From an uncultured virus (IMG/VR IMGVR_UViG_3300028832_000124) (Duplodnaviria > Heunggongvirae > Uroviricota > Caudoviricetes), in the IMG/VR virus record IMGVR_UViG_3300028832_000124: a stretch of 20,000 nt of DNA. One strand, given 5' to 3'. The position numbers and the translations under genes are program-made. This document shows, piece by piece, positions 1,109 to 16,988 of the stretch. Numbering within the stretch: the first letter of the stretch is position 1; every line of letters begins with the position of its first letter. The notes below the pieces were generated by a model, which saw only the letters and a program-made list of their open reading frames with translations, was not told the DNA's origin and did not search any database.

Positions 1109-1869
1109 GACTTCTCGGATAAAAGTTCAATGGCACGCTCCAGAGCTTCATCGACAACGCTATCACGCAGACAACGCTCGAACTTACGGCCCTTCTTCAC
1201 CTTCTCACGCTCGGCACGATACGACTGCAGCAGCTTCACACATCTGTCTTTCGACATCTTGCCCTCACCATCAGCAGGAACCAGACGGTCTGTACGATGT
1301 ACGTTATCCATCCGTGCAAACTCACGAATCTTACTCAGCGTCTTTTCGCTGGGCTGGAAATCAATGTGACTACGAATCATATCCTTCTCGTTCGGACCCA
1401 AAGGACGTTTCGCCAAGTCAATACCGATATAGTATCTGAGTGGACGGGTATTCTCCCACTTCTTCAATACATCGGCAAACTCAGCGGCAACATCAATGCT
1501 CTTCTTCTCGCATGGGCCACAACCACACTCAAGAAAGCTACGAATCCAAGAATCTGGATCAGGATTGAAAGTAGGAATGACACGCTTGACAAATTCGTCA
1601 AACTTCACATCTAAGTGCTCTTTCTCACTTTGAATCTGGCTCTCCAAAGCAGTCAACTTCAACACAACATCAGAGACACCAGCAAAAGTACCATCAGGCA
1701 ACTTCACCTCTACATAGTACTTCGTCTCTTCACCAGTAGTCTCAACACTACCTGTTATCTTGCCTACCAGCTTGTCAGTACCAATCTTAACAGTACCTCC
1801 AGCACCAGCAGACACCAATAACTCAGATGCCTTGAAACGTACTAATTCGCCAGTACCATACTTGGCCAT
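1105..1869 (-). CDS. Hypothetical protein, first gene of the leftward operon
   Basis: 254-aa ORF; stop overlaps the next start (ATGA); candidate promoter upstream. Confidence 0.75.
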   Translation of the reverse strand: MAKYGTGELVRFKASELLVSAGAGGTVKIGTDKLVGKITGSVETTGEETKYYVEVKLPDGTFAGVSDVVLKLTALESQIQSEKEHLDVKFDEFVKRVIPTFNPDPDSWIRSFLECGCGPCEKKSIDVAAEFADVLKKWENTRPLRYYIGIDLAKRPLGPNEKDMIRSHIDFQPSEKTLSKIREFARMDNVHRTDRLVPADGEGKMSKDRCVKLLQSYRAEREKVKKGRKFERCLRDSVVDEALERAIELLSEKS

Positions 1870-1992
1870 TACACAAGTAGATACAGAACAACAAGATAAC
1901 CCATTATGAACGATAAGGACGATTTGAAGGATTTTGCCCGGAACTAAGCCCCTCGCTCTATAATACCTATCTTAAGATAACAGAACCCGATG

Positions 1993-2000
1993 CAAAGATA
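1993..2000 (-). promoter_or_regulatory. Bacteroidetes sigma-A -7 box (TATCTTTG) for the leftward operon
   Basis: + strand caaagata = TATCTTTG(CA) on the - strand, matching TAnnTTTG, about 125 bp upstream of ATG 1869. Confidence 0.6.
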
Positions 2001-2854
2001 CACAAAATCATTCATATCATACATATTTATGCAAAAATACCCGTAAATATTAAGGATTTTTAATGAACGATAATATCTGACACCATATTTTACCCTCATT
2101 TTTATGAACGAAATCGTGACATCATCAAAAATGTCAAAATTTCGGTATCGTACATACACGGAATTGTTAAAAAGCTCCGAAAAAATTGGGAAAAAATATT
2201 TTTGAGGTGACAGGGGCGCAAATCTCGTGCCAAAATAGGGGGTGTAGGGGTATTAAAGACTCTTTAACATTATATCTTAATATTCATTAAAATTAAGTGT
2301 CCTGCCTTTTTGTTAGGCTTATTTAACACTATTTCCGATATTATACCTAATAATATAGGATATTATCTTAACACTTTTTAACTTAATATATTTGGTTTAA
2401 CATATTTTTGCATTTCGCGCCACCTTGTCACTTTGAAAAATCTTGACGCCATTTTGTCACTACACCTTTTCTTGACAATATTTTTGCATACCTATTCATT
2501 ACAATATTGCATATATATTCATGCGCTTGTAACTTACTATATATCAGCACTTTACACGCTTTCACGCTTTTCTGAAATATTGACAAAATCACGCAACGAA
2601 GTAAAGAAGTTTTACACGAAATCCGGCTATCATATTATAGTATATTAACACTATTAACAGATCCCAGGTATTTGTTAACACTCTGACCGGATGCTGCCTG
2701 ATTTGTAAACACTATTTAAGTAATATATTAAAACATTTAACAAATATGCTGCTGTGTGCGGCTACATGTTAAAACGTAACCTATTGAATATCAGCACGTT
2801 ACGCAATATATTTTGTAAAGAAAAAAGACACTTGATAATATCATTTTTTTTTCG

Positions 2855-2862
2855 TAACTTTG
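2855..2862 (+). promoter_or_regulatory. Bacteroidetes sigma-A -7 box (TAACTTTG) for the rightward transcript
   Basis: Matches TAnnTTTG about 85 bp upstream of ATG 2945. Confidence 0.6.
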
Positions 2863-2944
2863 TAGTACAAAAGATGAATATTTATAATTTACTAACCGCC
2901 TACGCTATATGGCACAATAAGTCCGCAGGGCAGCGGCAAAGATT

Positions 2945-3457
2945 ATGAAGAAAGACGAGATTAAGAACGTAGTCGAGAACACGGAGAGCGTAAAGAACGC
3001 AATCGAGAGCGGAAACGAGCTCACGCAGTCCGAAATCCTCAACGCCTACCTGGCAAATCATGCAGTCGAGCACTTTTGCGCTGCACTGAACGAGAACGAA
3101 GACGAAGTGAACGAAGTACTTGCAGCCTGCAAGAAGGAAGAAGGTATCTATTGGCTCTACACTCAGCCCGCAATCGACGGCAAGAAGGCCGACGGCACAC
3201 CACTGCCCACACGCGAAGAGTGGGAGCGCCTGAACACTGAGGCCGTGAGGGTTGACAATCTCGCAGGAAAGCAGTGGTACAAGCGCCCGTTCGTTATCGG
3301 TGACGCTCGCGGTGTCAAGTCAGTCGTTAACGCTTACGACCGCTATCAGTCCGCAATTGACGGAGCCGCCAAGAAGGTAGACAACACGCTCGCCGCTGCT
3401 GCTGCTATCTTAGGCGTTAGCGTTGAGGACTTGAAGGCAATGAAGGGCATCAAGTAA
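2945..3457 (+). CDS. Hypothetical protein, first rightward gene
   Basis: 170-aa ORF between a promoter box and a terminator; C-terminal 'AAAAILGVSVEDLK' helix pair. Confidence 0.8.
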   Translation: MKKDEIKNVVENTESVKNAIESGNELTQSEILNAYLANHAVEHFCAALNENEDEVNEVLAACKKEEGIYWLYTQPAIDGKKADGTPLPTREEWERLNTEAVRVDNLAGKQWYKRPFVIGDARGVKSVVNAYDRYQSAIDGAAKKVDNTLAAAAAILGVSVEDLKAMKGIK

Positions 3458-3478
3458 CGCAGAGCACACCACACCACG

Positions 3479-3517
3479 AAAGACGGGACCGGAAGAAATT
3501 CCGGCCCTATCTTTTTT
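3479..3517 (+). terminator. Rho-independent terminator
   Basis: GGGACCGGAA-gaaa-TTCCGGCCC stem followed by TATCTTTTTT, just after the stop at 3457. Confidence 0.75.
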
Positions 3518-3610
3518 CATGCCAAATCTTTCCGGTAATGCAGCCAGGGGATCTGATTCCCTGATGGTCACAAGCCCACAAATGCAGAGTGACGGAGAAA
3601 CGGGCGAGCC

Positions 3611-3671
3611 GAACGAACAGCCCGAACGAACGAAACGAACGAACGATTTATGAGAACGAACGAACAAACGA
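3611..3671 (+). repeat. Imperfect (GAAC)n tetranucleotide tract
   Basis: gaacgaacagcccgaacgaacgaaacgaacgaacgatttatgagaacgaacgaacaaacga. Confidence 0.8.
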
Positions 3672-3952
3672 TGCAGCCGAGCGATCTGGTTGTCATCAGC
3701 ACGGAAACGTTCAAGGACAGAAAGATTGAGGTTTTCCCCGATTTCTTTGTCTACGATTCCAGGACGAGAGCAGAACTCACCAATGCAGGCAGGATTTATC
3801 TCCGTGCATTATGTGATGACTACATGAACGAGAAAGTAACTGTTGAAGAATTGCTCTGCAATCTCGACACGATTTCCAAGGAATTTCCTTGTGACTCTGA
3901 TTTGGTTTATGACAAGATGTTTTTCGAGTTGACCAAAATGATGGAGAGTTAA
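3650..3952 (+). CDS. Hypothetical protein (true start may be ATG 3671)
   Basis: 100-aa ORF, co-oriented; 3-bp gap to the next ORF. Confidence 0.65.
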   Translation: MRTNEQTMQPSDLVVISTETFKDRKIEVFPDFFVYDSRTRAELTNAGRIYLRALCDDYMNEKVTVEELLCNLDTISKEFPCDSDLVYDKMFFELTKMMES

Positions 3953-3955
3953 ATC

Positions 3956-4318
3956 ATGTACGAACGAGAATATAAGGCGAGCGAGGTTGTCAGACAGCTT
4001 CGCCGCCATCAAGCAAAGCGCAATAATGACGAGCGCAGAGAATTGTGTGACGAGATAGAGAGTACGATTCCCTGTCAGCCCCGACTGATAGAGTTCAAGA
4101 GTACGATAACAGTACGAACGGAGCACGAATCAGAGACATTCCGCGCCAAGTATCTGCGAACGAGTACGCATTTCCCCGGAATAGTGCCAGAGCTGGTGAG
4201 CGAGGACGGGCAGGAGTACATGCTGATAACGTGGCTGACCTACGGAAGTCTGCTGAGATTACTCACGGAAGTACGACGAGGTGAACGGATAAAGAACTAC
4301 CGTTTCTTCGTATCATAA
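3956..4318 (+). CDS. Hypothetical protein
   Basis: 120-aa ORF; contains four AGTACGA copies in two reading frames. Confidence 0.6.
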   Translation: MYEREYKASEVVRQLRRHQAKRNNDERRELCDEIESTIPCQPRLIEFKSTITVRTEHESETFRAKYLRTSTHFPGIVPELVSEDGQEYMLITWLTYGSLLRLLTEVRRGERIKNYRFFVS

Positions 4319-4319
4319 C

Positions 4320-5090
4320 ACAGAGCAGTGAGCGAGTACGATTCTCGCTCATTAATGTGGCCATCCTTCGGGGTGAGAGTTGCAAGCCTCTAACACATAG
4401 CACGGGCAAGGGCCTGTATAAAGACATATCTGCGGAAACCTCCTGAGAACGGAGTACGACATGGATTCGTTGCACGATGAAATGTCGTGGGATATGACAC
4501 TGATGCAGGAAAATGCGGAGAGTTTAGAGCCGCTGCCTGAGCGAACAACGCGACACTCACGCAGTAGGGAGTTGAACCTGCTGAAATGGTCGAATAACGA
4601 GTAGGCCTGGAGCGATCAGATAAAAATCATATTCATTATTACGATTGATTCTCGCAGATGATTGCGAGTACGATATAGAGTTGGCTACCTATCTCGAGTA
4701 CGACTGTAGAAATGCAGTACGATTTATCAGAGGGTAATTCGTGGTGGTTCCCGTCGAAAGGTACGATAACACATTTAATCACTTTAGGATGAATCGGGCC
4801 GTGTGCTCATGGAGTACGATGACCCCACCGCCACAGACGAATTAGATGTTTGTCTGGACGGCAGGGAGAATCTTGCTGCAGAGTACGATGAACGGCTGCA
4901 ATGAAAGATATTACGAGGTGCGAGACCTCAGCATAAAGAATGGCCTGGCATATGACCAAATATGCCATTATCCCTCGGTTGGGGCAACGACGGCCTGCTT
5001 GTCAGGAAAGTCCCAGGTGAACGAAAGACGATAATGAACGAAGAGGGAGAGACTACGGGAGAGAGTGGAATTACCTCCGCTCTCTCTTAC
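4320..5090 (+). ncRNA. Candidate large structured ncRNA or structured leader
   Basis: No convincing ORF. At least 8 hairpins, with cUUCGg and GAAA loops and G-U pairs that work only on the + strand. Seven AGTACGA copies. Confidence 0.45.
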
Positions 5091-5114
5091 TATTTAACCA
5101 ATAAAAGTGCGATT

Positions 5115-5312
5115 ATGAAGAAATTCCTGCAAATCTCGAGAACTATCTTGAGTCTGAGTATTATTACTCTGATTAGTATTGCCATCTGTGCAGTTGTATC
5201 GCTGCTTGTCTTGTACGTTTTCGGCATCAACGATGACACTATCAGATGGTGTGCCAGCATCATGCTTTTTGGCACCATCCTCGTTGCTCTTCTTTTGGGA
5301 GCATTCGATTAA
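5115..5312 (+). CDS. Small membrane protein with two predicted TM helices
   Basis: MKKFLQISRTILSLSIITLISIAICAVVSLLVLYVFG...; start reassigned to ATG 5115 after the motif and A-rich leader. Confidence 0.65.
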   Translation: MKKFLQISRTILSLSIITLISIAICAVVSLLVLYVFGINDDTIRWCASIMLFGTILVALLLGAFD

Positions 5313-5375
5313 CAAAGTCTCACGGATATTTTCGGCAGAAATGTTGAAAATATCGCTCATGTTTCACCAAACAAG

Positions 5376-5663
5376 ATGAATGATATGGATAAGTTAAAGA
5401 AATTGCAGATGGTAGCCAAAGTTCTGAGAGAACACCACGGCTACAAAGGTAACAAGGAGTCAGACCATTCTAATCGGTTTAACTTCAAGTTTGACAAGAG
5501 CGAGGGCATTGCCAGTCCGTGTATCGACGTGTACAATGCAGAGAAAGGAGCAAACCTCTTCTTGTGGCCAGAAATCATAGAGTTGTGTCACGGCTTCGGG
5601 CTGTCGCACTACATACACTATGACAAATATGACCTCGAAGAGGTGGTGCTGCACATCTACTAA
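5376..5663 (+). CDS. Hypothetical protein
   Basis: 95-aa ORF bracketed by two hairpin motifs. Confidence 0.75.
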   Translation: MNDMDKLKKLQMVAKVLREHHGYKGNKESDHSNRFNFKFDKSEGIASPCIDVYNAEKGANLFLWPEIIELCHGFGLSHYIHYDKYDLEEVVLHIY

Positions 5664-5714
5664 GTCTCACGGCTCCATCAGGAGCCACTATTATTCACCA
5701 AATAACGAACGAGT

Positions 5715-5978
5715 ATGAAACAGAAAGTAATCAAAACGACTGCAATCTTCCGTTGCATCGTAACATTCAAGGATGGTGCACACAAAATCATCCGCATGAC
5801 CATTGACAAGGTAGCGCATTTCGTGTATCTTTTCAGACAGCAGGAGAGAAATATCTTCGTGGATGAAACATGTCTCTTCGAGATGTGCGAAAACGAATGG
5901 TTATGTATGTCATCAGTTGCCGGTGCCAAATTCATCAATGACCGCACCGACCAGGAATTTCTCAGTATCAGTCTTTAA
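5715..5978 (+). CDS. Hypothetical protein
   Basis: 87-aa ORF bracketed by hairpin motifs. Confidence 0.75.
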   Translation: MKQKVIKTTAIFRCIVTFKDGAHKIIRMTIDKVAHFVYLFRQQERNIFVDETCLFEMCENEWLCMSSVAGAKFINDRTDQEFLSISL

Positions 5979-6030
5979 AGGGTGGGTACATTTTGTACCC
6001 CTCCCACAACAAACCAATAATTATTGAACG

Positions 6031-6198
6031 ATGGTAGTAAACAAGATTCTCCGCAATAAGTGCGGTTTTTGGTATGTGGGCCGTCTTCTGACTGTTGATC
6101 CCGATGGTGTTCCCGTCTATCAGAAGTTGTCAGATGATTACGTCTACAAAGGATGGGCATTGAACTTTGCCCGTCGTATGTGTATCAAGCTATCGTAG
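6031..6198 (+). CDS. Small hypothetical protein, 55 aa (not in the ORF track)
   Basis: MVVNKILRNKCGFWYVGRLLTVDPDGVPVYQKLSDDYVYKGWALNFARRMCIKLS*; fills the gap between two motifs, and its TAG overlaps the GCCT motif. Confidence 0.65.
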   Translation: MVVNKILRNKCGFWYVGRLLTVDPDGVPVYQKLSDDYVYKGWALNFARRMCIKLS

Positions 6199-6271
6199 CC
6201 TTTTTGGCATGGGTGGGTTTTATTTCGTTCGTTCGCCTGCCTGTGCTGCTATTCACCAATACTATACGAAT

Positions 6272-6730
6272 ATGTTACCATCAGAATTTTATGACAGGAC
6301 GCATATCAAGCTCTCAGGAGATGAATATGCAGACGTAGAGAACATCTACAACAATGTGGAGATGCAAAAGGATGACTTCTGCCAGCATTGGGTTGAAGAA
6401 AAGGAAAATCCGTTGTTCAAGGAGTTAGCCAAAGCATTCTGCAAGCAGACGAAAGAGCTGCTGCAGGCTCAGAGTGACCTCGGCACCATCGAGCACAAAT
6501 ACAAGAGCGAGATTGAGGCCATCAAAAAGGAGAATGAGCGCATCCTTGCTGACAAGGAAGAGGCTCACAAATCTCTGGGTCGTAAGATTATTGAGAATAT
6601 CGACGACGAAGTACGATTGCACGATATTCTTGAGGAAGAGTTCACGATAGACTTTATCATCAAGGTCAAGCTGTATAATGACATGGAGCTTGAGCGAAGT
6701 GAGCGAGACTATCTAATCGGAAAGCTTTAG
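6272..6730 (+). CDS. Hypothetical protein with central coiled coil
   Basis: Start reassigned to ATG 6272 (MLPSEFYDRT...) downstream of the motif; in frame with track ORF 6167..6730. Confidence 0.75.
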   Translation: MLPSEFYDRTHIKLSGDEYADVENIYNNVEMQKDDFCQHWVEEKENPLFKELAKAFCKQTKELLQAQSDLGTIEHKYKSEIEAIKKENERILADKEEAHKSLGRKIIENIDDEVRLHDILEEEFTIDFIIKVKLYNDMELERSERDYLIGKL

Positions 6731-6778
6731 TCTTTAGGAGCCATGAACGGCTCCACTATTCACCAAAAATGTAAGAAT

Positions 6779-7015
6779 ATGGAAAAACTATTGAGAAATC
6801 AGCTTCATCTTGTCGGCTCTGCTGGCACGTTGGAGAATCTTTGTGAGTTCGCTAAGCAGCGTCTTTATTGGGCGCAGCTCGAAACCTCTGAGAGTACACG
6901 CTACGAGTCCCGTATGGGTAAGGTGTACGATGTGAGTAATCGTAACGGCCTCGTTCCTAACATGGTAATCATTCAGAGCAAGGTACGCTGTTCTCTCTAT
7001 CGGATAAAAGAGTGA
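6779..7015 (+). CDS. Hypothetical protein
   Basis: Start reassigned to ATG 6779 (MEKLLRNQ...), because the upstream ATG 6743 lies in the hairpin loop. Confidence 0.7.
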   Translation: MEKLLRNQLHLVGSAGTLENLCEFAKQRLYWAQLETSESTRYESRMGKVYDVSNRNGLVPNMVIIQSKVRCSLYRIKE

Positions 7016-7018
7016 GTC

Positions 7019-7195
7019 ATGAGCAAGTATCATCAGGAAAAGGATCGTGCGCGTCAGATAGCAAAGGACTGGCAGCAGGAAGAATCTCAAATCTCCCTGT
7101 CATGGGAAGGTGTGATGATTGCCGCTGCCTACCTGCAACGACTTGCGCGACGCTACGGACTCATTCGTGAGTTTCGTGAGAATGCCATCATCTAA
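7019..7195 (+). CDS. Small conserved-looking hypothetical protein, 58 aa (not in the ORF track)
   Basis: MSKYHQEKDRARQIAKDWQQEESQISLSWEGVMIAAAYLQRLARRYGLIREFRENAII*; the RYGL.REFREN ending resembles a recurring gut mobile-element protein. Confidence 0.7.
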   Translation: MSKYHQEKDRARQIAKDWQQEESQISLSWEGVMIAAAYLQRLARRYGLIREFRENAII

Positions 7196-7206
7196 ATGCT
7201 ACAGCT

Positions 7207-7365
7207 ATGCCAAAGGGTAAAGTAAGGTGGCTCACGTTCACTGACAATCCCCGTTGGGGCAGATATTTCATCGGTGAGAGTGAGTCCAGACAGGAAGCCA
7301 TCGACAAAGGTAAGGCAGCAAACAAAGGCAGATTCGTAGTTGAACGGAGAGTAAAGTTCAAGTAG
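7207..7365 (+). CDS. Small basic hypothetical protein, 52 aa (not in the ORF track)
   Basis: MPKGKVRWLTFTDNPRWGRYFIGESESRQEAIDKGKAANKGRFVVERRVKFK*; TAG overlaps the GTCT motif. Confidence 0.65.
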   Translation: MPKGKVRWLTFTDNPRWGRYFIGESESRQEAIDKGKAANKGRFVVERRVKFK

Positions 7366-7417
7366 TCTTTTGCGGCTCTTGCATGGGCCGCACAATTATT
7401 CACCAAATCTTAAGAGT

Positions 7418-7666
7418 ATGATAGAAGTAAAGAAGACCACCTATTTGGTGGACGGCATTCAAGAGCCTTGCTACGAGGTTTCTGACGGCTACGCTATGGT
7501 GCGAATTGCCAAGTGTTACCACATGGTAGGACGTGACACGCTCTATTTGACAGAGTATCTTGATGGAGAGTGGAACGGCTCAGACGAATGGGATGGAGAT
7601 TTCGATGCTCTGCACGATTTCGACGCGAAACGCCTGGCCAAACAATTCTCAGTTTATCTGAACTAA
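7418..7666 (+). CDS. Acidic hypothetical protein
   Basis: Start at ATG 7418 (MIEVKKTTYLVDG...); D/E-rich C-terminal half. Confidence 0.7.
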   Translation: MIEVKKTTYLVDGIQEPCYEVSDGYAMVRIAKCYHMVGRDTLYLTEYLDGEWNGSDEWDGDFDALHDFDAKRLAKQFSVYLN

Positions 7667-7679
7667 TCTCTGATGCGCT

Positions 7680-7850
7680 ATGGTAAAGTACAAAGGTTAT
7701 TCCATTTGGAACGAGCCAACGACGTTTGGCCGTCCTAACTGGCATGTTGGCACAGTCCAAAATGACGGGAAAATGTTGGTCCATGCCTCCGGCTATGGCA
7801 GTTGTCTGTCTGCTAAGCGTGCTGCTGATGCACATTTTGGCAGGCTGTAG
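7680..7850 (+). CDS. Small hypothetical protein, 56 aa (not in the ORF track)
   Basis: MVKYKGYSIWNEPTTFGRPNWHVGTVQNDGKMLVHASGYGSCLSAKRAADAHFGRL*; TAG overlaps the GTCT motif. Confidence 0.65.
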   Translation: MVKYKGYSIWNEPTTFGRPNWHVGTVQNDGKMLVHASGYGSCLSAKRAADAHFGRL

Positions 7851-7895
7851 TCTTTCGCTCCTTCGGGAGCACTATTCACCATATTTATTCAGCTT

Positions 7896-8249
7896 ATGAT
7901 TATCACAGACGAAACAAAGCAAAGATTCCTGCGGATGCTCAATGAGCGTCAGATTATTGTCATCCAATGTGACCACGGAAAGTCTCACAAGACCTACGAT
8001 TTCAAGTTCATTGGTGCCAATAGTGAAGGAAAGTGGGATTTCACTCCCATGATGGTAGAAATGAGCAGATACCCATCCAACAAGAGCACAAACGTAAAAT
8101 ACCTGTCAGTCCGTGCTCTGGATGCTGTGTCTGTCATCTGCGAGGTTATTGAGAAGATGAAGGAAGAGGGTATCTTGAACTTCGAGTACGCTTTCGGTTA
8201 CGAATTGTATCAGATAGTACGAGATAAAATCTGCACCTTCTATGTCTGA
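7896..8249 (+). CDS. Hypothetical protein
   Basis: 117-aa ORF bracketed by motifs. Confidence 0.75.
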   Translation: MIITDETKQRFLRMLNERQIIVIQCDHGKSHKTYDFKFIGANSEGKWDFTPMMVEMSRYPSNKSTNVKYLSVRALDAVSVICEVIEKMKEEGILNFEYAFGYELYQIVRDKICTFYV

Positions 8250-8295
8250 GTCTCTTGGGGCCGAACGGCCCACTATAAACCAAACGTTATGAATT

Positions 8296-8625
8296 ATGAA
8301 AGCATTGTGTATCTCAACTTGTCATCTGATTGCTAACGGACATGGCTCTATCTTTGAGCCAGTACGCGAAATCAGCGGTAAGAAGTTCTATTGCAAAGGA
8401 GATTTCTCCATTGCAAAATCTTGTGAGAGGGCTTATGTGGTTCTTTGGAAGAATGTGATTGTTGGGGAGTTTGTTGGAGCGAACAAAGAGCTTGTTGACT
8501 TACTACACTCCAAGACTGCACCGGACTCAAAGAAGGTCATGCAGAGTTACAACTACAGGACCGCATTGGCTGATATTGAGGAAGCTCAGAAATGGGCAGA
8601 ACGTTACAATTTCAAAATTTGCTAA
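8296..8625 (+). CDS. Hypothetical protein
   Basis: 109-aa ORF bracketed by motifs. Confidence 0.75.
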   Translation: MKALCISTCHLIANGHGSIFEPVREISGKKFYCKGDFSIAKSCERAYVVLWKNVIVGEFVGANKELVDLLHSKTAPDSKKVMQSYNYRTALADIEEAQKWAERYNFKIC

Positions 8626-8683
8626 ACGTCTCTTGTGTGGCTATAATGTAGCCACAGCTATTAACCCCTAAACTTATAGGAAT

Positions 8684-9019
8684 ATGGAAAATAATGCAGT
8701 AAAGAATGATGCTCTACGCATCCATGAAGTGACAGGCCGACCAATGGCTGAATGTGAAGAGCAGGCACAGCAGATTGCTGATTGTGTACGCGAAATGTGC
8801 AATCGAGTGGTTGAGTTCTTTTATCTCAAGAAGGATGGCACCACACGCCAAGCATTCGGTACGCTCCAGCAGGAAGTTGTGATTGCTCATGTGACAGCTG
8901 ACTCCATGAGAGAGCCAAAGCCTGACCTCGTAACGTATTTCGACACTGAGGCGCAGGCATGGCGTTCCTTCAAGAAAGTCAACTTCAAGAGCTTTGTAAA
9001 GATGGAGCCACAAGCATGA
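8684..9019 (+). CDS. WYL_2/DUF2693-like Sm/SH3 beta-barrel protein
   Basis: VVEFFYLKKDGTTRQAFGTL...LVTYFDTEAQAWRSFKKVN is the characteristic signature of this family. Confidence 0.75.
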   Translation: MENNAVKNDALRIHEVTGRPMAECEEQAQQIADCVREMCNRVVEFFYLKKDGTTRQAFGTLQQEVVIAHVTADSMREPKPDLVTYFDTEAQAWRSFKKVNFKSFVKMEPQA

Positions 9020-9153
9020 CGAATATCGCGAAATATGCTTGGTGTCTCTTCCTTGCAGCCCTGACGTTTGGCATCTGGACGTTCCCAATCCTAATCGTCT
9101 TGGTCCTCGTCAATCTCTATCTTATCAAAAAGCATCCCGAATGGTACAAATGA
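9016..9153 (+). CDS. Small hydrophobic membrane peptide, 45 aa
   Basis: MTNIAKYAWCLFLAALTFGIWTFPILIVLVLVNLYLIKKHPEWYK; ATGA overlap with the previous gene; followed by a motif. Confidence 0.6.
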   Translation: MTNIAKYAWCLFLAALTFGIWTFPILIVLVLVNLYLIKKHPEWYK

Positions 9154-9212
9154 AGTCTCAAGCCGTGCAAAGGACACGGCACCATTTATTAACCCCTAAA
9201 ATGTAGTGAATT

Positions 9213-10127
9213 ATGAAAAAAGAAAAGAACATTTGCGTAGAAGAAGTTGCCAAAGTTCCTGTTGTTAAGTACTACTTTTACAGGAAAGACACGAATGGCT
9301 ATCTGAAAACGGATGGTGGGCTTGTTTATGTGACTGTCTCTGCTATCAGCATTGACTTCAAGAAACAGCTCTTAGTAACGACGCTCACAGACAAGAGCGG
9401 CAAGGAGTATCTGAAAGAAGGTAAATTCTCTCTTTATGCAAGTCCAGAGGCGTACGAAGCTGACGATCCAATGAGAATGATTGTGTATCAGACGTGGGAA
9501 CTTCTTAAGTTTGCCGATTGGGGCCGACTGACTGATTGCGCTGTTGGTATTGTTGACGAGGAAGAAGGCAAGCAATCCTGTTATATCAAGGTATGGATAT
9601 TCGAGGATGGTGGTGCAAAAGAAATTCCCGTTGTCATCAACTCCATTGCCTGCGACACGTACGAGAAATGGCACTTGACCGACGGCAACATTCCTGTGAA
9701 GATGTGGGAAACCAGAGCTGACGCATACGCCTTCAACGAATATCAGATTACTGATAGTGACGGCGAGGTGTTCACTGAGGAAGGATTTCAGAAAAGACTT
9801 GGCCTGACCCCTGCACAATGGGTTATCCTCAAGCAGATGAAGGTACTCTTCGACAAAGCAACGGATGCAGGCATCAAGTTCATTTGGGACCGAGAGTATG
9901 CCGGAAACATCAAGGCTGTGAATCTTCTGAACGTCCACGACTACGGCTACGACCAACAGGCATTCCAAGGTGGTGACAACATTCAGTTCAAGCAGGTTGT
10001 TTTCGCTGACACTGGCATCAACTTCTACGATTACAACTCCGACGATGCTGACAGGGAAACGTTCGCCCTCAATCCAACAGCACGTCAGCAAAAGGAATGG
10101 CTCAAAGCCACTCAAGGTAACGAGTAG
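9213..10127 (+). CDS. Hypothetical protein
   Basis: 304-aa ORF bracketed by motifs; no family recognised. Confidence 0.8.
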   Translation: MKKEKNICVEEVAKVPVVKYYFYRKDTNGYLKTDGGLVYVTVSAISIDFKKQLLVTTLTDKSGKEYLKEGKFSLYASPEAYEADDPMRMIVYQTWELLKFADWGRLTDCAVGIVDEEEGKQSCYIKVWIFEDGGAKEIPVVINSIACDTYEKWHLTDGNIPVKMWETRADAYAFNEYQITDSDGEVFTEEGFQKRLGLTPAQWVILKQMKVLFDKATDAGIKFIWDREYAGNIKAVNLLNVHDYGYDQQAFQGGDNIQFKQVVFADTGINFYDYNSDDADRETFALNPTARQQKEWLKATQGNE

Positions 10128-10177
10128 TCTTTCTCCCTGCTTGCATGCAGGGAACAACAAACCAACTACACAAGATT

Positions 10178-10696
10178 ATGGCAAAGTTAAACGTCTATTC
10201 ATTTGCCGACTATAACTCTGTCCGTTTCCTCGCCCATCAAGTGAAGGATGGTAATGACAGTAGTATCAGTCGTGCAGCTCGTTACATGGCGCATCTTGTG
10301 TCGTGTATCGCTGACGAGCGATGTGTTATCATTCCTGTGCCTGGTCGTACAGGTGTCGCTCTCTACACAAAGGTTCTTGCCGAGCGTATCTCTGAGCTAA
10401 CGGGTGTACGTGTCGTGGACTGCCTAAAGTGCAAGCCACACATGACTCAGTATCTCCGCAAGATACGCTATGGACTTGACAGCATGCGTCCGATGGATTT
10501 CTCCATCACTCAGGACATTCCCTCAGACGTTATCCCTATTCTCATTGATAACGTTCTTGACACGGGAACTACTATTGTGTCAGCCATGCAGGCATTAAAC
10601 CGAACACTCTACGCTGTTGTGCTGGGCAATACGCACAACTTCCAGCATTTCAATTATCCTATCAACCTCTACGAACAGTCTCTTGCTCTCCAGTAA
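10178..10696 (+). CDS. Type I phosphoribosyltransferase-fold protein (ComF-like)
   Basis: IIPVPG and the PRPP-binding loop ILIDNVLDTGTTIVSA; start reassigned to ATG 10178. Confidence 0.75.
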   Translation: MAKLNVYSFADYNSVRFLAHQVKDGNDSSISRAARYMAHLVSCIADERCVIIPVPGRTGVALYTKVLAERISELTGVRVVDCLKCKPHMTQYLRKIRYGLDSMRPMDFSITQDIPSDVIPILIDNVLDTGTTIVSAMQALNRTLYAVVLGNTHNFQHFNYPINLYEQSLALQ

Positions 10697-10734
10697 TATG
10701 GAGAGTGCTATTAACCCATAAAATTATCAAGAAT

Positions 10735-11061
10735 ATGACAAAGATTACCTACAATGAGCAAGAACTTCGCCTTGTGCAGTCTCGCTATCAGAACAACAAT
10801 GCGCTCTACGTTGGACTCGTTGACAATGATGGAGAGTTTTATGCAGATGTGACGGTCAACATGCCCATCAGCAGCACTATGCCGACTGACTGCGCTTTCG
10901 TTGACACAAACAATCTCTCTTGGAAAATCATCGAAGTGTTGACGGATGCAGGTGTTGTGACACCTATCCATCAGACATGCAGAAGTGGTTTCTATCAGTA
11001 TCATGCTTTCCGCTTTCAGAATCTCTGGGATATTGATGACATCACAGCAGCGATCAACTAA
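10735..11061 (+). CDS. DUF4313-like protein
   Basis: YQNNNALYVGL...YADVTVN...AFVDTNN...SGFYQY pattern; start at ATG 10735. Confidence 0.65.
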   Translation: MTKITYNEQELRLVQSRYQNNNALYVGLVDNDGEFYADVTVNMPISSTMPTDCAFVDTNNLSWKIIEVLTDAGVVTPIHQTCRSGFYQYHAFRFQNLWDIDDITAAIN

Positions 11062-11263
11062 GTACGAAGCCGTCTGCGAGTCAGGGAATACGGATGCTGA
11101 CACCATCATGAAGTTTCCTGACCGTGAATCAGCAGAAATGTTCTGTCAGATTTGGCGTGCCTCGCATCCTGGCACCCATGCTTGGGTACGAGAGACACAG
11201 CACCGCCACATGGAGCACAACACGCTTGGCAGTTCCGTAATGACGGTAGACCTCTACGATTAG
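11036..11263 (+). CDS. Small hypothetical protein (start uncertain)
   Basis: In frame with track ORF 10985..11263; TAG overlaps a degenerate GCCT motif. Confidence 0.5.
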   Translation: MTSQQRSTKYEAVCESGNTDADTIMKFPDRESAEMFCQIWRASHPGTHAWVRETQHRHMEHNTLGSSVMTVDLYD

Positions 11264-11324
11264 CCTCAGTGTGCAGCGTGATTTTTGTCACGCTGTTCCC
11301 AATAACCCCTAAATACATCAGAAT

Positions 11325-11861
11325 ATGAATGAATACAAACCAATCTTCACCTGCTATGAAGAAATCAAGCAGCGTGAAATCAGAGAATTGAAGGATGCGG
11401 TACGAGCAGCGAGAGGGCAGTATGTCTTCCAAAAGGATAAGCATCCGTATGTGATGTGCAACCTCGACTCTGGCCCGTGTGACCTACGTGTTGACAGCGT
11501 AGAGATACAGAACATTTCAGATGTAGATGTACTGGTCATCTTTGGCTACGACGAGCAGGCAGGGCAGGCGGTTGAAATCTCTCTTGAGGATATTGCTTAC
11601 AGCCATATCTCGTTTATCACTGAGGCTATTCCTGTCCGCAAGTTCACACAATCTTCATTCTCTATCTCTCGCCTCAGCCGTGAGGACCTCGAAGAGAAAG
11701 GCTTCGACACGTCAGACGTGGATGACAAGACGATGGAAAAACTGGCTTCTAAGCTGGGTGATGACTATTGCGAACAGCTCTTTTGGGAATCTCTTGAAAT
11801 CATTGCCGAATCTATGGGTATTCCTCGCAAAGAGGACTACGAAGAGGATGATGACGAATAG
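11325..11861 (+). CDS. Acidic hypothetical protein
   Basis: 178 aa; C-terminal SREDLEEKGFD...LASKLGDDYCEQLFWESL segment and acidic tail. Confidence 0.8.
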   Translation: MNEYKPIFTCYEEIKQREIRELKDAVRAARGQYVFQKDKHPYVMCNLDSGPCDLRVDSVEIQNISDVDVLVIFGYDEQAGQAVEISLEDIAYSHISFITEAIPVRKFTQSSFSISRLSREDLEEKGFDTSDVDDKTMEKLASKLGDDYCEQLFWESLEIIAESMGIPRKEDYEEDDDE

Positions 11862-11863
11862 CT

Positions 11864-12073
11864 ATGTCCACCATCCGCTTGCAGCTCATTAAGGGCTTCT
11901 TCTATCCGACGGATGCAGACAGCCGTAAGATTCTCGAAGAGAGTGTGCGACTTGACCGCATCCCACTTGAACGAATAGACGTGGTATCTCCCAAACTTGT
12001 GAAAGCTGGTCATGCTCTGGCTATCACAGGCTGGGACCCACCGCCTGTTCCCGTGCGCTTTTCGTCTCTTTAG
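11864..12073 (+). CDS. Small hypothetical protein
   Basis: 69-aa ORF starting 2 bp after the previous stop and ending inside a motif. Confidence 0.6.
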   Translation: MSTIRLQLIKGFFYPTDADSRKILEESVRLDRIPLERIDVVSPKLVKAGHALAITGWDPPPVPVRFSSL

Positions 12074-12123
12074 CCGTAAGAAATTTACGGCACTACTTAA
12101 CCCCTTAAAAGAAAGGATTGAAT

Positions 12124-13035
12124 ATGAGTCAAAACAATGTTTATCAGATGGTAACTGACCGCATCGTGGCACAGCTGGAGCAGGGTCTTATCCCTTGGCA
12201 TAAGCCGTGGACGGGCGTAGGTATTGAAGATGGTGGAGCTGTCAACTATGTCAGCCGAAAACCCTACAGCATGCTGAATCAGATGCTTCTTGGACGCGAG
12301 GGAGAATATCTCACCTTCAAGCAGATCAAGGAGCGTGGAGGTAGTATCAAGAAGGGAGCAAAAGCTGGTGTCGTTGTATTCTTCACCACTACGACCTACA
12401 CCAAGCGCGAGGAAGTGCAGGAAGATGGCTCTACTGAGACTGTCAGTGTCATGAAAGAACACCTCATGCCTGTACTCAAGTACTACAACGTCTTTCACAT
12501 AGACGATTGTGAGGGTATCGAGAGTAAGATTAAGGTTGAAGAGGATGCTGGACCGAAGATTTCTACCATCGAGTCAGCCGAGAAGGTTCTGAACGGCTAC
12601 GTCGAACGAGAGAAAGAACTGCAGTTCCGCAACAATATACCGACTGACCGGGCCTACTATTCTCCGACGCTCGACCTTATCTCAGTTCCTATGCTCTCTC
12701 AGTACGAGATTGCGGAAGAGTATTACTCGACCACGTTCCACGAAGCGATTCACTCTACCATGCCAGAGAATCGTTGCAACCGCAAATCTGAGCAGAAACT
12801 TGCTGCCTTTGGTAGCGAGGATTATTCTCGCGAGGAACTTGTGGCCGAGATTGGCTCTGCCATGCTCTGCAACAATGTTGGCATCGACTGCGAGAAAGCT
12901 TTCAAGAACTCTGTAGCCTATATCCAGGGATGGCTTAAGAAGCTCAAGAACGACAACCGAATGATTGTCTGGGCTGCATCCCGTGCTGAGAAGGCTGCAA
13001 AGTACATTCTTGGTGAGCCAATCACTACTGAGTAG
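12124..13035 (+). CDS. ardC: ArdC-family antirestriction/ssDNA-binding protein with zincin-like metallopeptidase domain
   Basis: N-terminal VYQMVTDRIVAQLEQGLIPWHKPW; YYSTTFHEAIHST (HExxH) and YSREELVAEIGSA. Confidence 0.9.
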   Translation: MSQNNVYQMVTDRIVAQLEQGLIPWHKPWTGVGIEDGGAVNYVSRKPYSMLNQMLLGREGEYLTFKQIKERGGSIKKGAKAGVVVFFTTTTYTKREEVQEDGSTETVSVMKEHLMPVLKYYNVFHIDDCEGIESKIKVEEDAGPKISTIESAEKVLNGYVEREKELQFRNNIPTDRAYYSPTLDLISVPMLSQYEIAEEYYSTTFHEAIHSTMPENRCNRKSEQKLAAFGSEDYSREELVAEIGSAMLCNNVGIDCEKAFKNSVAYIQGWLKKLKNDNRMIVWAASRAEKAAKYILGEPITTE

Positions 13036-13091
13036 TCTATCTTTCCCAATGTGTAAGGCATTGGGAACTATAAACCAAACAATATCAGAAT

Positions 13092-13790
13092 ATGGAAAGA
13101 ACATTTTTACCCGTAAACTGTTGGGCAGCGGAAGATATTCCGTCCAACAAACTGATTGAGGGCAACCCTCAGAACATGAGTAATGCGGAATTGCTCTCTA
13201 TCATCATTGGCACTGGCTCCGATAAGGAGAATAGTGTAGAACTTGCACGTCGCATCCTTCTGACCTGTGACAACAAGCTTTCAGAACTGGCTAAGAAGTG
13301 CAACAATCCCAACAATCTCACCTACATGCGTGGCGTGGGCAAGCAGAAAACGGCTAAGATTATAGCAGCTCTCGAGCTTGGCAAGCGTCGCCAGCATGAG
13401 CAGGCCACCGAACGGCCCGAACTCAAAACGGCAGTACGAGTCTATAACATGATGGCTCCTATCATGCAGGATTTGGAAAAGGAAGAGTTTTGGGTGCTTC
13501 TCATGGGGCAGCACTTCAAGCTGATAAAGAAGTTCCGGCTGTCACAGGGTGGTATCTCTGAGGTGTCCGTGGATATTCGCATCATCATGAAGGAAGCGGT
13601 TCTGAATAACGCCACCGTCTTGGCTGTCTGTCATAACCATCCCTCTGGCTCACTGAGTCCGAGCAAATGTGATGACGATATAACGTTCAGCCTCAAGAAA
13701 GCCTGTGACGTTATGCGCATCTATCTCAGCGATCATGTCATCATAACTGATGGCGCATACTACAGCTATCGCGAGCAGGGAAGAATCTGA
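13092..13790 (+). CDS. radC: RadC-family JAB/MPN domain protein
   Basis: ELLSIIIGTG, HhH-like GVGKQK, EEFWVLL, JAB motif HNHPSG...S..D, DHVII. Confidence 0.9.
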   Translation: MERTFLPVNCWAAEDIPSNKLIEGNPQNMSNAELLSIIIGTGSDKENSVELARRILLTCDNKLSELAKKCNNPNNLTYMRGVGKQKTAKIIAALELGKRRQHEQATERPELKTAVRVYNMMAPIMQDLEKEEFWVLLMGQHFKLIKKFRLSQGGISEVSVDIRIIMKEAVLNNATVLAVCHNHPSGSLSPSKCDDDITFSLKKACDVMRIYLSDHVIITDGAYYSYREQGRI

Positions 13791-13810
13791 CCAACAAATG
13801 ACCAACAATT

Positions 13811-14026
13811 ATGTTATACACCGACGTTCAAGCTCAGGAACTCGTAGGGCAGGTTCTCGAATCTCTCAACGAGGATGGCCGTTATCCTCTCCATGAGGGA
13901 GATATGGGCTACTACAAGAATGCCAATGGAATCTGGACGGCTTGGGATAATTCTACAGGCGACTGCTGGGTAGAGGATTTCAAGACCCGAAAGGAGGCCA
14001 TTGAATGGTTAGGAAATGTTAATTAG
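13811..14026 (+). CDS. Small conserved phage-type hypothetical protein
   Basis: 71 aa; WTAWDNSTGDCWVEDFKTRKEAIEWL; TAG overlaps the last GTCT motif. Confidence 0.7.
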   Translation: MLYTDVQAQELVGQVLESLNEDGRYPLHEGDMGYYKNANGIWTAWDNSTGDCWVEDFKTRKEAIEWLGNVN

Positions 14027-14062
14027 TCTTTTTATCCTGCATGACATTTGCCGTGCAGGATG

Positions 14063-14190
14063 CAACTCACACAGCAACTCACACACTGATTCACACAGTA
14101 ATTCACACACTTAACGCATTGTGTATCAGATAGTTAATGTAAAACCTCACACACCAATTCACACAGCGATTCACACACCAACTCACACAA
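14063..14190 (+). repeat. Eight 12-bp direct repeats (core TCACACA) in two blocks of four
   Basis: CAACTCACACAG CAACTCACACAC TGATTCACACAG TAATTCACACAC, 32-bp spacer, AACCTCACACAC CAATTCACACAG CGATTCACACAC CAACTCACACAA. Confidence 0.9.
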
Positions 14191-14351
14191 TCGCGCGTGT
14201 GTATATAAAGGTACGTGCGCGTTTATAGTTATTATATAAATATATATATTCTACCAGTATATATATAACTGTGCAAAAATGGCTTTTTGTCTCTGATGTT
14301 AAAAATTCAGAAAACATCCTATATTATAAACCAAATTATTAATTTTGCAAT

Positions 14352-15299
14352 ATGAAAGAATTAAGAGGTCTCAGTTTAGACCAAAACAAGAAGTTCAAGT
14401 TCGCTATAGAATGCGGATATTTGGACGATTGGGAAACTGACCCACGAAAATGGAAACATACTTTCGTAGGTGCTTTCCTATGGAAATATCCCTCAAGGGT
14501 TAAAATCCTGAATATCCTCAAGGATATTATAGGTAACATACCTACGTGGGGTGACTTGAATGACGAGACATTACGCGACCTCGTAGATGAACTGATAGAG
14601 CAGGGCCTTGCCACGTCATCCATCAGAACGATGTGTGCAGAGCTGAAAGTGGTGCTCAATGAGAATGTGAAGAAAGTACCATGCGACAGCTTCCAGAAGA
14701 TATTGTCTGTGAAAGGGTCTGCAACAAAGCCAGTCTATCTGACGAGCAGCGAAATGGAACTCCTTCTTGCTTTCAAGCCTCGTACAGAGACAGAACACTA
14801 CGTACACCGTAACTTCTGCGTCTCTATGCTCACCGGAGCAAGGCTTGTAGACACATTGAAGCTAACCATCAGTAATTGTGACATTGAAACAAACATGCTG
14901 TCATACATTCCTCAGAAGACTCCTGGCATTGTCGTACACGTTCCCGTCGATGAACGGCACCACCTGCGAACGTTCCTTGCAGATATACCAAAGAACGACA
15001 GGTGCCTTGATACGTACAACGAGGTCATACGACGCATCTGTGAGCTTGTTGGCATTGACACGGTATGTAATGCCGTCAAGGCAGGAAAGGACGTGACAGC
15101 ACCAAAGTATCAGCTTGTCAGCTCGCATACAGCACGTCGCTCCTTTGCGACGAATCTCTATATAGCTGGCGTGTCGCTTGAGGACATATCCATGATGATG
15201 GGCCACGGCAAGAATATCGAGACAACAAAACGATATATCTGTGCAGAGCGTGCGCTGAATCCAAATGTCATGTCATACTTCCAGCAGCCAGCCGAATAG
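14352..15299 (+). CDS. Tyrosine recombinase lacking a recognisable arm-binding domain
   Basis: Catalytic set present: TGARLVD (R), SSHTARRSFATNLY (HxxR), MMGH, TTKRY (Y). Confidence 0.9.
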   Translation: MKELRGLSLDQNKKFKFAIECGYLDDWETDPRKWKHTFVGAFLWKYPSRVKILNILKDIIGNIPTWGDLNDETLRDLVDELIEQGLATSSIRTMCAELKVVLNENVKKVPCDSFQKILSVKGSATKPVYLTSSEMELLLAFKPRTETEHYVHRNFCVSMLTGARLVDTLKLTISNCDIETNMLSYIPQKTPGIVVHVPVDERHHLRTFLADIPKNDRCLDTYNEVIRRICELVGIDTVCNAVKAGKDVTAPKYQLVSSHTARRSFATNLYIAGVSLEDISMMMGHGKNIETTKRYICAERALNPNVMSYFQQPAE

Positions 15300-15346
15300 T
15301 TTCCTGCATTTCTTTCCTATTTGCGGTGTAGGAAACAATTTATTTT
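15299..15346. terminator. Probable terminator between the convergent recombinase genes
   Basis: GTTTCCTGCAT...GTGTAGGAAAC stem (with G-U pairs) followed by a T-rich tract. Confidence 0.45.
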
Positions 15347-15358
15347 CCTATTTCGGTC

Positions 15359-16591: not shown

Positions 16592-16593
16592 AC

Positions 16594-16745
16594 TATTCTG
16601 AGTTTAATTGGTTTGCTACACTATTTGCTGCACCAAATTAACCCTCAAAAGCCTGCAAAAGCCGCGATTTCTCTTAATCGTTTGGAGATTTACCTCAACT
16701 CAGAATAATTATCAAAAAGCCTAATTTGCTGATTATCAGCATTGA
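16594..16745. other. Putative att junction: arm-type repeats and palindrome next to the tRNA 3' end
   Basis: Direct repeats TTTGCTACAC (16612) and TTTGCTGCAC (16624); inverted repeat TATTCTGAGTT (16594) / AACTCAGAATA (16697); palindrome TGCTGAT-T-ATCAGCA (16727-16741). Confidence 0.6.
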
Positions 16746-16817
16746 GCGGAATACGGGACTCGAACCCGCGACCCTCGGCTTGGGAAGCCAATGCTCTACC
16801 AACTGAGCTAATTCCGC
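16745..16817 (-). tRNA. tRNA-Gly (anticodon CCC)
   Basis: GCGGAAT acceptor stem, D arm GCTC-AGTTGGTA-GAGC, anticodon loop TTCCCAA, T loop TTCGAGT; CCA not encoded. Confidence 0.97.

Positions 16818-16915: not shown

Positions 16916-16988
<73 letters not shown>

Follow-up and report, generated by a model that had tools for sequence, protein, structure and literature searches.

A conserved structured RNA, probably released by a twister ribozyme, in temperate phages of rumen Prevotella

What occupies the long gap in the gene array of a rumen phage? The stretch of DNA considered here, which we call the window, comprises 20,000 nt of an uncultured Caudoviricetes virus (IMG/VR record IMGVR_UViG_3300028832_000124), and its packed run of + strand genes is interrupted at 4320–5090, between an open reading frame (ORF) at 3956–4318 (+) and a small membrane ORF whose ATG lies at 5116. 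An earlier note had described this interval as a hairpin-dense gap, not AT-rich and without a convincing ORF, and had suggested a new large structured RNA, a protein sponge or a processive antiterminator leader. The ORF listing bears out the gap, its longest + strand ORFs encode 47 and 62 amino acids (aa), and its GC content is 0.46–0.51. We propose that the interval is the gene of a non-coding RNA of ~700 nt, carried by a temperate Prevotella siphophage and released from its transcript by a twister ribozyme, with action as a scaffold or sponge as the preferred role; we put the probability of this joint reading at roughly 0.6. The parts of the locus on which the argument turns are the following.

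4354–5056, + strand: putative mature non-coding RNA, ~700 nt, its 5′ end placed by the twister site and its 3′ end by RNA contigs
4319–4391, + strand: type-P5 twister ribozyme (RF02684, 38.7 bits, cut-off 37.6, E 4.5e-7, short-stretch scan)
4392–4620, + strand: variable domain, which differs among subfamilies and has indels of 30–48 nt
4621–5049, + strand: conserved core, with the blocks AAAUCAUAUUC, UCGUGGUGGUUCCCGUCGAAA, CAUUUAAUCACUUUAG, GUACGAUGAACGGCUGCAAUGAAAGAUAUUA, AUAAAGAA and AACGAAG invariant in 13 sequences

Relatives were collected by pattern scans of viral, genome and metagenome collections followed by sorting with BLAST, which left 13 non-redundant rumen phage or prophage loci that are 58–98% identical; chance matches were dropped from three scans (9 of 12 loci, 7 of 8, and 3 of 16, these last being L038, L039 and L050). 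One gene order is common to all 13: a member of the ORF 2945 family, a ribozyme, one or two small ORFs, the type-P5 twister, a variable domain of 250–450 nt, the conserved core, a stem termed S9, a small membrane ORF and a member of the ORF 5376 family.

The + strand of 4319–5095 folds at −258.9 kcal/mol, compared with −225.5 ± 5.7 for 20 dinucleotide shuffles (z = −5.92); for the − strand z is −2.61. The earlier note had remarked on + strand G–U pairs in the stems, and the alignment of the 3′ half contains several that are invariant, so that the + strand is the one that folds. When each sequence is folded individually, every core hairpin is present in all 13 loci, and at least 11 hairpins or helices are kept by compensatory changes. 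The helical elements of the core are listed here, with the percentage of alignment cells that pair where it was calculated.

4651–4668, + strand: hairpin S1, in 13 of 13 loci with 5 stem variants; 96.6% paired
4678–4695, + strand: hairpin S2, with the conserved loop UGGCUACY; 76.8% paired, a value affected by a register problem in the alignment
4703–4718, + strand: hairpin S3, with a GNRA loop and a repeated motif (see below) on both flanks; 98.8% paired, 3 of 5 pairs changed on both sides
4719–4742, + strand: helix S4, in which ACGA of the motif pairs with an invariant UCGU; 96.3% paired, 3 of 9 pairs changed on both sides
4764–4796, + strand: helix S5, in which CGAU/AUCG closes the invariant loop CAUUUAAUCACUUUAG; 1 compensatory pair
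4797–4808/4881–4897, + strand: long-range helix enclosing a hairpin at 4834–4856; 98.9% paired, 4 of 9 pairs changed on both sides
4915–4929, + strand: hairpin S6, with a G-N-R-A-G pentaloop, in 13 of 13 loci with 5 stem variants
4946–4967, + strand: hairpin S7, in 13 of 13 loci with at least 6 stem variants
4974–5045, + strand: domain S8, with helices 4974–4976/5043–5045, 4979–4985/5010–5016 and 4994–4997/5003–5006; 95.5–100% paired

Two alignments were compared with shuffled controls. A covariance model of 4622–4800 (R1, 177 positions) scored 105.9–196.7 bits in 19 full or truncated matches, and re-alignment of 20 matches (18 distinct) gave 94.1% paired cells, against 81.0 ± 1.2 in shuffles (0 of 500 reached the value) and 25–45% in slid controls, with 10 of 24 pairs changed on both sides (equalled in 3 of 500 shuffles); being fitted to the model, this alignment leans towards the structure. 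A plain MAFFT alignment of the 3′ half, covering five helices, gave 97.1% paired cells against 86.9 ± 1.0 (0 of 500) and 42–53% in slid controls, and 14 of 34 pairs were changed on both sides (0 of 500).

Seven of the nine hairpins picked out in the earlier note are kept with altered stems in all 13 loci (4329–4351, 4362–4375, 4651–4668, 4703–4718, 4915–4929, 4946–4967 and 5057–5088); the remaining two, 4402–4417 and 4473–4489, sit in the variable part of the RNA and are found only within the window's subfamily. The first two in that series are helices P1 and P3 of the twister ribozyme, which the earlier note had overlooked, along with a second ribozyme upstream and the repeated motif. Variation between loci extends to whole elements: S5 is formed by CGAC with GUUG in L048 and L036, and the domain inside the long-range helix is missing in L048, L047 and L033. 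GNRA loops are numerous and long unpaired blocks are invariant across the 13 loci. The S2 loop UGGCUACY can form a candidate pseudoknot with GGUGGUU, with consistent one-sided changes; the tertiary candidates never vary on both sides. In L036, an internal duplication of ~92 nt repeats the S2–S3–S4 block and adds copies of the motif, bringing that RNA to 14.

These patterns bear on the possibility that the gap holds a decayed protein-coding gene, which the earlier note had named as a finding that would count against an RNA. Such a gene could have left the ORFs of 47 and 62 aa as remnants. The longest ORFs over the 13 loci span 47–101 aa in differing frames and strands, however, and no ORF is shared among them; indel lengths in the alignments are not multiples of three, and the invariant blocks are conserved at all three codon positions while the stems covary. 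In L043, L044 and L036, the ORF that begins at 4888 runs for 8 codons before a stop. Two further coding candidates were rejected: a conserved micro-ORF (MNGCNERY) has no ATG in L033 and L032, and an N-terminal extension of the membrane protein from 5035 has no ATG in most relatives, among which the length of S9 varies. We give the decayed-gene explanation next to no weight.

The large RNA belongs to a new family that is absent from Rfam 15. Among Rfam covariance models only the twister families matched; ROOL, GOLLD, OLE, raiA, HEARO and other large RNAs gave no match at E ≤ 10 in 3800–5300, and the large-RNA families gave none at E ≤ 1 in the whole window or in the relatives. We found no published description of this RNA in the literature on twisters, phage ribozymes and candidate structured RNAs, and a DNA similarity search against 50,697 phage records returned no match. 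In a sample of 151 genomes from the genus to which the Prevotella metagenome-assembled genome (MAG) G002 belongs, R1 matched G002 alone, few candidates having been scored per genome. The earlier suggestion of a new large structured RNA is therefore backed by covariation, by strand-specific folding, by the lack of any Rfam family beyond twister and by contigs from RNA libraries, which are described below.

A large RNA of this kind may have a biochemistry of its own, as a ribozyme, possibly one that makes its own 3′ end, or as a self-assembling complex resembling ROOL or GOLLD. A size of ~700 nt, many GNRA loops, invariant unpaired blocks, candidate pseudoknots and a 3′ end that no known nuclease signal explains would all suit such a molecule. 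ROOL averages 581 nt, and ROOL and GOLLD occur in the rumen and in prophages, near tRNAs, as PMC5737381 describes; the RNA here resembles them in its large size, rumen origin, prophage setting, nearby tRNAs and complex conserved structure. It differs from them in matching no covariance model, in being headed by a ribozyme, in carrying a repeated 9-mer and in its occurrence in one of the 151 sampled genomes of the genus (G002 itself). Given that models of ROOL, GOLLD, OLE, raiA, hatchet, pistol and hepatitis delta virus (HDV)-like RNAs find nothing here at E ≤ 10, and that the candidate tertiary pairs never vary on both sides, we regard this explanation as quite unlikely.

At the head of the RNA lies a twister signature, with the following helices.

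4319–4322/4357–4360, + strand: twister P2
4328–4352, + strand: twister P1
4363–4374, + strand: twister P3
4376–4391, + strand: twister P4, with loop GUUGCAAGCC

The helices and their order are those of RF02684, as is the conserved core (UAA cleavage site, GC, CAAGCC), and membership of that family is supported by a score above the cut-off and by the permuted order of helices P1, P2 and P4, with covarying stems. The sequences CACAGAGCA, UAAUGUGGC and GUUGCAAGCC are invariant in 13 of 13 loci; the stems vary around them, with 8 variants of P1, 8 of P3 and 4 of P4. Two pseudoknots are possible: GGC (4359–4361) can pair with GCC (4386–4388), and GCA (4325–4327) with UGC (4381–4383), all invariant in the 13 loci, and these segments we take to be the partners in T1 and T2 of the twister structure. 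Cleavage is predicted at U4353^A4354, presumably the position at which the twister family cuts. In ten relatives scanned together, RF02684 scored 41.5–46.9 bits in six, and type P5 was not reported for L032, L040, L048 and L051; two further scans of the same relatives' contigs gave 43.0 and 45.3 bits.

The twister begins one base after the stop codon of ORF 3956–4318, and in most loci an ORF ends within ~3 nt of the twister start, whichever ORF it is. Three traits distinguish it from other members: its position would mark the 5′ end of a large conserved RNA together with the 3′ end of an mRNA; its P4 loop is GUUGCAAGCC, to which GAGCA corresponds, the model consensus showing GGUCCCAAGCC and GAGGG at these places; and its P1 loop holds the repeated motif in 9 of 13 loci. 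Its placement near phage genes and beside another ribozyme fits the description in PMC6765202; the twister is new as a member, but its family and its type of setting are both known. Within the window's subfamily alone, the twister 5′ strand UAACACAGAGCA (4316–4327) recurs as UAACACAUAGCA (4391–4402) directly after P4. After cleavage this UAACACAUAGCA copy could replace the P2 strand and one pseudoknot in the released RNA.

Sequences from the region are present in RNA libraries, namely gut metatranscriptomes. Six RNA runs match part of it, and four runs from three studies were compared as contigs, which show presence and cannot give strand, exact ends or levels; unitigs may also break at strain differences.

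4366–5052: contig of run X15, which runs into Illumina adapter
4387–4624 and 4622–5049: contigs of run X16
4622–5056: contig of run X17
4366–4522 and 4530–5017: contigs of run X18

As the adapter starts with AGA, the insert in X15 ends at 5049, the same stop as in X16, and the RNA probably ends at about 5049–5056, just after the last covarying helix (4974–4976/5043–5045). Contigs of two studies begin at 4366, 12 nt past the predicted cut and without a loose end, which hints weakly at the 5′ end. All four runs are devoid of contig cover at 4137–4337 and 5075–5400, and we do not count this as evidence. Contig depth in X15 was 35.1 for the RNA contig and 4.2–9.2 for upstream contigs, a poor measure of level. 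A circular RNA was rejected, as no back-joined contig was found, and covariance models of hatchet, pistol, twister-sister and HDV-like ribozymes did not match near 5049–5100.

The other distinguishing trait of the locus is a short repeated motif, RAGUACGAY. The window holds 18 copies of AGTACGA where 1.8 are expected, 11 of them on the + strand at 4061–4888; its 9-mer form is GAGTACGAT, and 82 distinct contexts give the extended consensus R-A-G-U-A-C-G-A-Y-R-A. The shorter GTACGA has 13 copies, all in one orientation.

3958, 4062, 4101, 4112, 4271, 4336, 4454, 4668, 4698, 4717, 4761, 4814 and 4883, + strand: copies of GTACGA

Each of the 13 RNAs holds 5–14 copies of GUACGA (shuffle means 0.2–0.5, maximum 4) and none of its reverse complement. 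Copies tend to mark junctions, where AG ends the 3′ arm of one helix and CGAY often opens the next; at 4881–4887 the whole motif is paired with 4802–4808. Upstream of the cut, 9 of 13 loci carry the motif in the P1 loop of the twister, and the window's subfamily also has copies within ORF 3956–4318; ACGA is dense over 3500–5050. Copies of AGTACGA further downstream (6610–13433) are coding, mostly stand before G or A and look like chance effects of codons.

Thirteen co-oriented copies of a 6–9-mer within 930 bp, with an AT-rich region 1.3 kb away and copies also inside ORF 3956–4318, could instead act as DNA, whether as origin iterons, as a centromere or packaging array or as a Chi-like protection site, the RNA structure being incidental. 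Replication iterons are evenly spaced repeats of 17–22 bp, with an AT-rich element and an initiator gene next to them. The units here are 9–11 nt, their spacing is irregular (11–214 nt), no extension beyond ~11 nt supports a longer repeat unit, and the copies are locked to covarying RNA helices. In the 3.4 Mb of the host MAG, GAGTACGAT is found just 16 times, and 5 of these copies belong to this locus; the motif is therefore not a genome-wide signal, and Chi-like or uptake-signal readings were rejected by this count. We consider a role as DNA highly improbable. Type III antitoxin RNAs such as ToxI consist of tandem ~36-nt repeats upstream of a ToxN/AbiQ-type toxin gene; the irregular repeats of 9–11 nt, with no ToxN/AbiQ-type family nearby, do not conform to that pattern.

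Returning to a twister-released RNA with a scaffold or sponge role, we infer in vivo self-cleavage, exact ends and function, and picture them as follows; a stable, structured RNA processed by a ribozyme is the part with good support. The RNA would be transcribed within a long + strand accessory or early operon, and the type-P5 twister would cut the transcript at U4353^A4354, leaving the stable P1 hairpin as the last element of the upstream mRNA. The released RNA would have a 5′-OH end held in the twister remnant and a 3′ end at about 5049–5056, just before the first "hairpin + ACUAUUUAACC" module, and would adopt a modular fold whose helices are joined by the junction motif RAGUACGAY. We see about one chance in three that it is a trans-acting scaffold or sponge, whose ACGA-type copies would engage a candidate reader that also sees ACGA-rich translation starts (3596–3670 and 3956–3968); both the copy number of the motif and the ACGA-rich gene starts fit a sponge.

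Several observations weigh against this proposal. The twister went unreported when the whole window was compared with Rfam at gathering thresholds, and the short-stretch scan placed it barely above the cut-off; the contig stops at 4366 and 5049–5056 are weak hints only, as they come from contigs and not from reads. For a simple sponge in particular, the motif stands in mixed contexts (in linkers, at helix starts and, at 4881–4887, fully paired), and ~150 nt outside it are invariant, which is more in keeping with a complex fold. Nor was any reader protein identified, and the flanking ORFs have no family in Pfam or PHROGs. CsrB and RsmZ are multivalent sponge RNAs that carry many copies of a short motif (GGA) among hairpins. 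The RNA here is similar in its many short-motif copies among hairpins and in the related motif-rich sequence at the translation starts of neighbouring genes; it differs in that the motif is RAGUACGAY rather than GGA, lies at junctions or inside helices rather than in loops, and is accompanied by invariant blocks outside the motif. It thus lacks the GGA-in-loop hallmark of Csr/Rsm-type sponges.

The region upstream of the twister offers a further perspective on why a transcript should be cut here.

3532–3595, + strand: upstream twister-like element, type P1 (RF03160, 53.4 bits, E 1.2e-9, below the cut-off of 67.2)
2701–2789 of L036 and 2670–2721 of L047, − strand: complete hammerhead cores

Because the cut-off is missed, we treat 3532–3595 as a twister-like ribozyme and not as a curated member of RF03160; its predicted cleavage site is U3536^A3537. 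Upstream RNA-library contigs stop at 3533 and resume at 3547 and 3554, around this site, which is again a weak hint. The P1-type element is also present in the nearest record, G001, and at the same place in 6 of 10 relatives (44.8–54.8 bits). In L036 and L047 a hammerhead takes its place, matched weakly by Rfam (28.8 and 21.9 bits) and with a full core (CUGAYGA ... GAAA ... GUC) in which stem III is altered from CAC/GUG to CGC/GCG. As the class of ribozyme is exchanged at one position, the cut itself would appear to be what selection keeps. Perreault et al. in 2011 reportedly described ribozyme pairs flanking genes in prophages. The arrangement here is similar in that two self-cleaving ribozymes bracket one or two small ORFs and the class at one of the two positions differs among relatives; it differs in that the downstream ribozyme would also free a large structured RNA.

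The same features could belong to a purely cis-acting cassette for processing or insulation, in which the ribozymes and a structured spacer simply cut a polycistronic transcript into pieces of unlike stability. P1 would then close the upstream mRNA and S9 would open the downstream one, and the piece cut out between them would have no function in its own right. In favour of such a cassette, the twister adjoins the stop codon of the preceding gene, a second ribozyme of exchangeable class (type-P1 twister or hammerhead) is found one or two genes before it, 11 of 23 downstream genes have a hairpin module in front of them, and PMC6765202 suggests polycistronic processing as a role of bacterial twisters and hammerheads. 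A spacer, however, needs no 430-nt core with invariant blocks and 11 covarying helices in loci that are otherwise 58–70% identical, and RNA-library contigs hold the excised piece. We therefore judge a cassette without a functional RNA to be unlikely.

Between the two ribozymes, and ahead of them, lie the following features.

3650–3952, + strand: ORF of 100 aa between the two ribozymes, found by tblastn in 6 of 12 relatives' loci
3596–3670, + strand: GAAC/ACGA-rich leader that runs into the start of ORF 3650, with 9 ACGA in 80 nt around ATG 3650
3956–4318, + strand: ORF of 120 aa with an Arg-rich N-terminus and 5 copies of GTACGA, in 4 of 13 loci only
2453–2486, + strand: candidate Bacteroidota-type promoter (TTTG..TAnnTTTG) in an AT-rich switch region (GC 0.29–0.34)

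A spurious translation of the leader (..GEPNEQPE.LKRTNE) is kept in L043 and L048, and this suggests that 3596–3670 is conserved at the nucleotide level. ORF 3956–4318 is a real coding sequence, as its differences from L034 are biased to third codon positions (18/25/41 by position); its indels are in frame. Over the 13 loci, the slot just before the twister is filled by three unrelated families of small ORFs, several with Arg-rich N-termini (RQLRRHQAKRNNDERRE, SRRGRTAESQRIDWLRNLRAER and KRTNKRNERT), which may act as RNA-binding arms or may simply result from the ACGA-rich DNA. A search of a protein atlas with ORF 2945 and ORF 3650 returned no usable match. The promoter pattern, which we take to be the Bacteroidota consensus, has 2 matches in the window against 0.42 expected, a weak excess that 12 of 200 shuffles reach; 2453–2486 is the probable start of the + strand operon, and no further match lies between 2486 and the RNA.

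An antitermination leader of the nut/put type, acting in cis and possibly with the upstream Arg-rich proteins, might use such a region to read through the downstream hairpins. In lambda nut and HK022 put, hairpins with GNRA-like loops and a linear motif head a phage operon. The region here heads a long operon with hairpin-separated genes, the ORFs directly upstream are Arg-rich at the N-terminus in three different families, and S6 presents a 5-nt G-N-R-A-G loop on a stem of 4–5 bp, which we liken to boxB. By comparison with nut and put, the RNA here is far larger, has many motif copies, lies far from a promoter (~1.9 kb from the candidate) and is apparently excised, seeming to be cut from the downstream transcript at about 5049–5056. 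Moreover, the upstream ORF families are not conserved, and their Arg-rich stretches coincide with ACGA-rich nucleotides and may be a by-product of them. Antitermination in cis is, in our view, very unlikely.

Downstream, the RNA adjoins an array of genes punctuated by hairpins, as the earlier note had pointed out.

5057–5100, + strand: stem S9 (13 bp) followed by ACUAUUUAACCAA, with 6 of 11 pairs changed on both sides
5086–5100, 5687, 7871, 8272, 8657, 9184, 10707, 11301, 12092, 13067 and 14318, + strand: copies of the downstream module
5116–5312, + strand: small two-helix membrane ORF, 65 aa, which follows the RNA in relatives

The module consists of a hairpin, ACUAU(W)AACC(M)(M), a spacer of 10–19 nt and ATG; it precedes 11 of the 23 + strand gene starts examined and may serve the individual cistrons as a signal for processing or expression. 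The 13-bp stem at 5057–5088, which had been counted among the hairpins of the gap, does covary strongly, but it seems to lie outside the mature RNA, as the first copy of this module. RNA contigs stop before S9, and S9 with ACUAUUUAACCAA probably begins the following mRNA and does not belong to the RNA itself. A weak Rfam match to the histone3 stem-loop at 5666–5711 (22 bits, E 0.045) was rejected as just the module hairpin GGCUCC-AUCA-GGAGCC. GTCTCACGG is not enriched after stop codons (5 matches, reached by 55 of 200 shuffles).

The element that carries this locus is a temperate Prevotella siphophage of ~75 kb. G001, a contig of 75,595 bp with a 127-bp terminal repeat, matches window positions 1834–16786 at 90–98% and encodes a tape-measure protein of 2,088 aa, a large terminase, a D5-type primase-helicase, RecT, KilA/ANT and a cytosine methylase. 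The similarity stops at 16786, inside the first tRNA gene and beside a tyrosine integrase; from this boundary and the gene set we conclude that the phage integrates at a tRNA, the first of the two being the likely attachment site. A relative, L022, sits in a Prevotella MAG from roe-deer abomasum.

14352–15299, + strand, and 15359–16591, − strand: two tyrosine integrase genes
16745–16817 and 16916–16988, − strand: two tRNA genes
17074–19899: UvrA-like gene, after the tRNA pair

The + strand operon that includes the RNA also encodes ArdC, RadC, DUF4313 and WYL_2. Genes of the type found in leading regions of conjugative elements cluster at 8684–13790, namely WYL_2, DUF4313, ArdC with a zincin peptidase domain, and RadC.

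If the reading of a twister-released RNA holds, the twister has a clear task, in that its cut is where one mRNA ends and where a large conserved RNA, covered by contigs from gut RNA libraries, begins. The role of most bacterial self-cleaving ribozymes is still open, according to PMC6765202. The RNA would add a new family from phages of Prevotella, a dominant rumen genus, and the architecture of its motif points to a putative binding partner.

A bolder extension of the preferred scaffold or sponge role would be a Csr-like circuit in Bacteroidota, a phylum that is not known to have CsrA, Hfq or ProQ. A putative reader of RAGUACGAY/ACGA would control the translation or decay of phage, and perhaps host, messages, and the twister-released RNA would titrate it. 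We hold such a circuit to be a speculative and unlikely possibility; in an equally bold variant, the invariant core may be a new ribozyme that makes its own 3′ end. If true, a Csr-like circuit would give bacterial twisters a biological job and the phylum a new post-transcriptional regulator.

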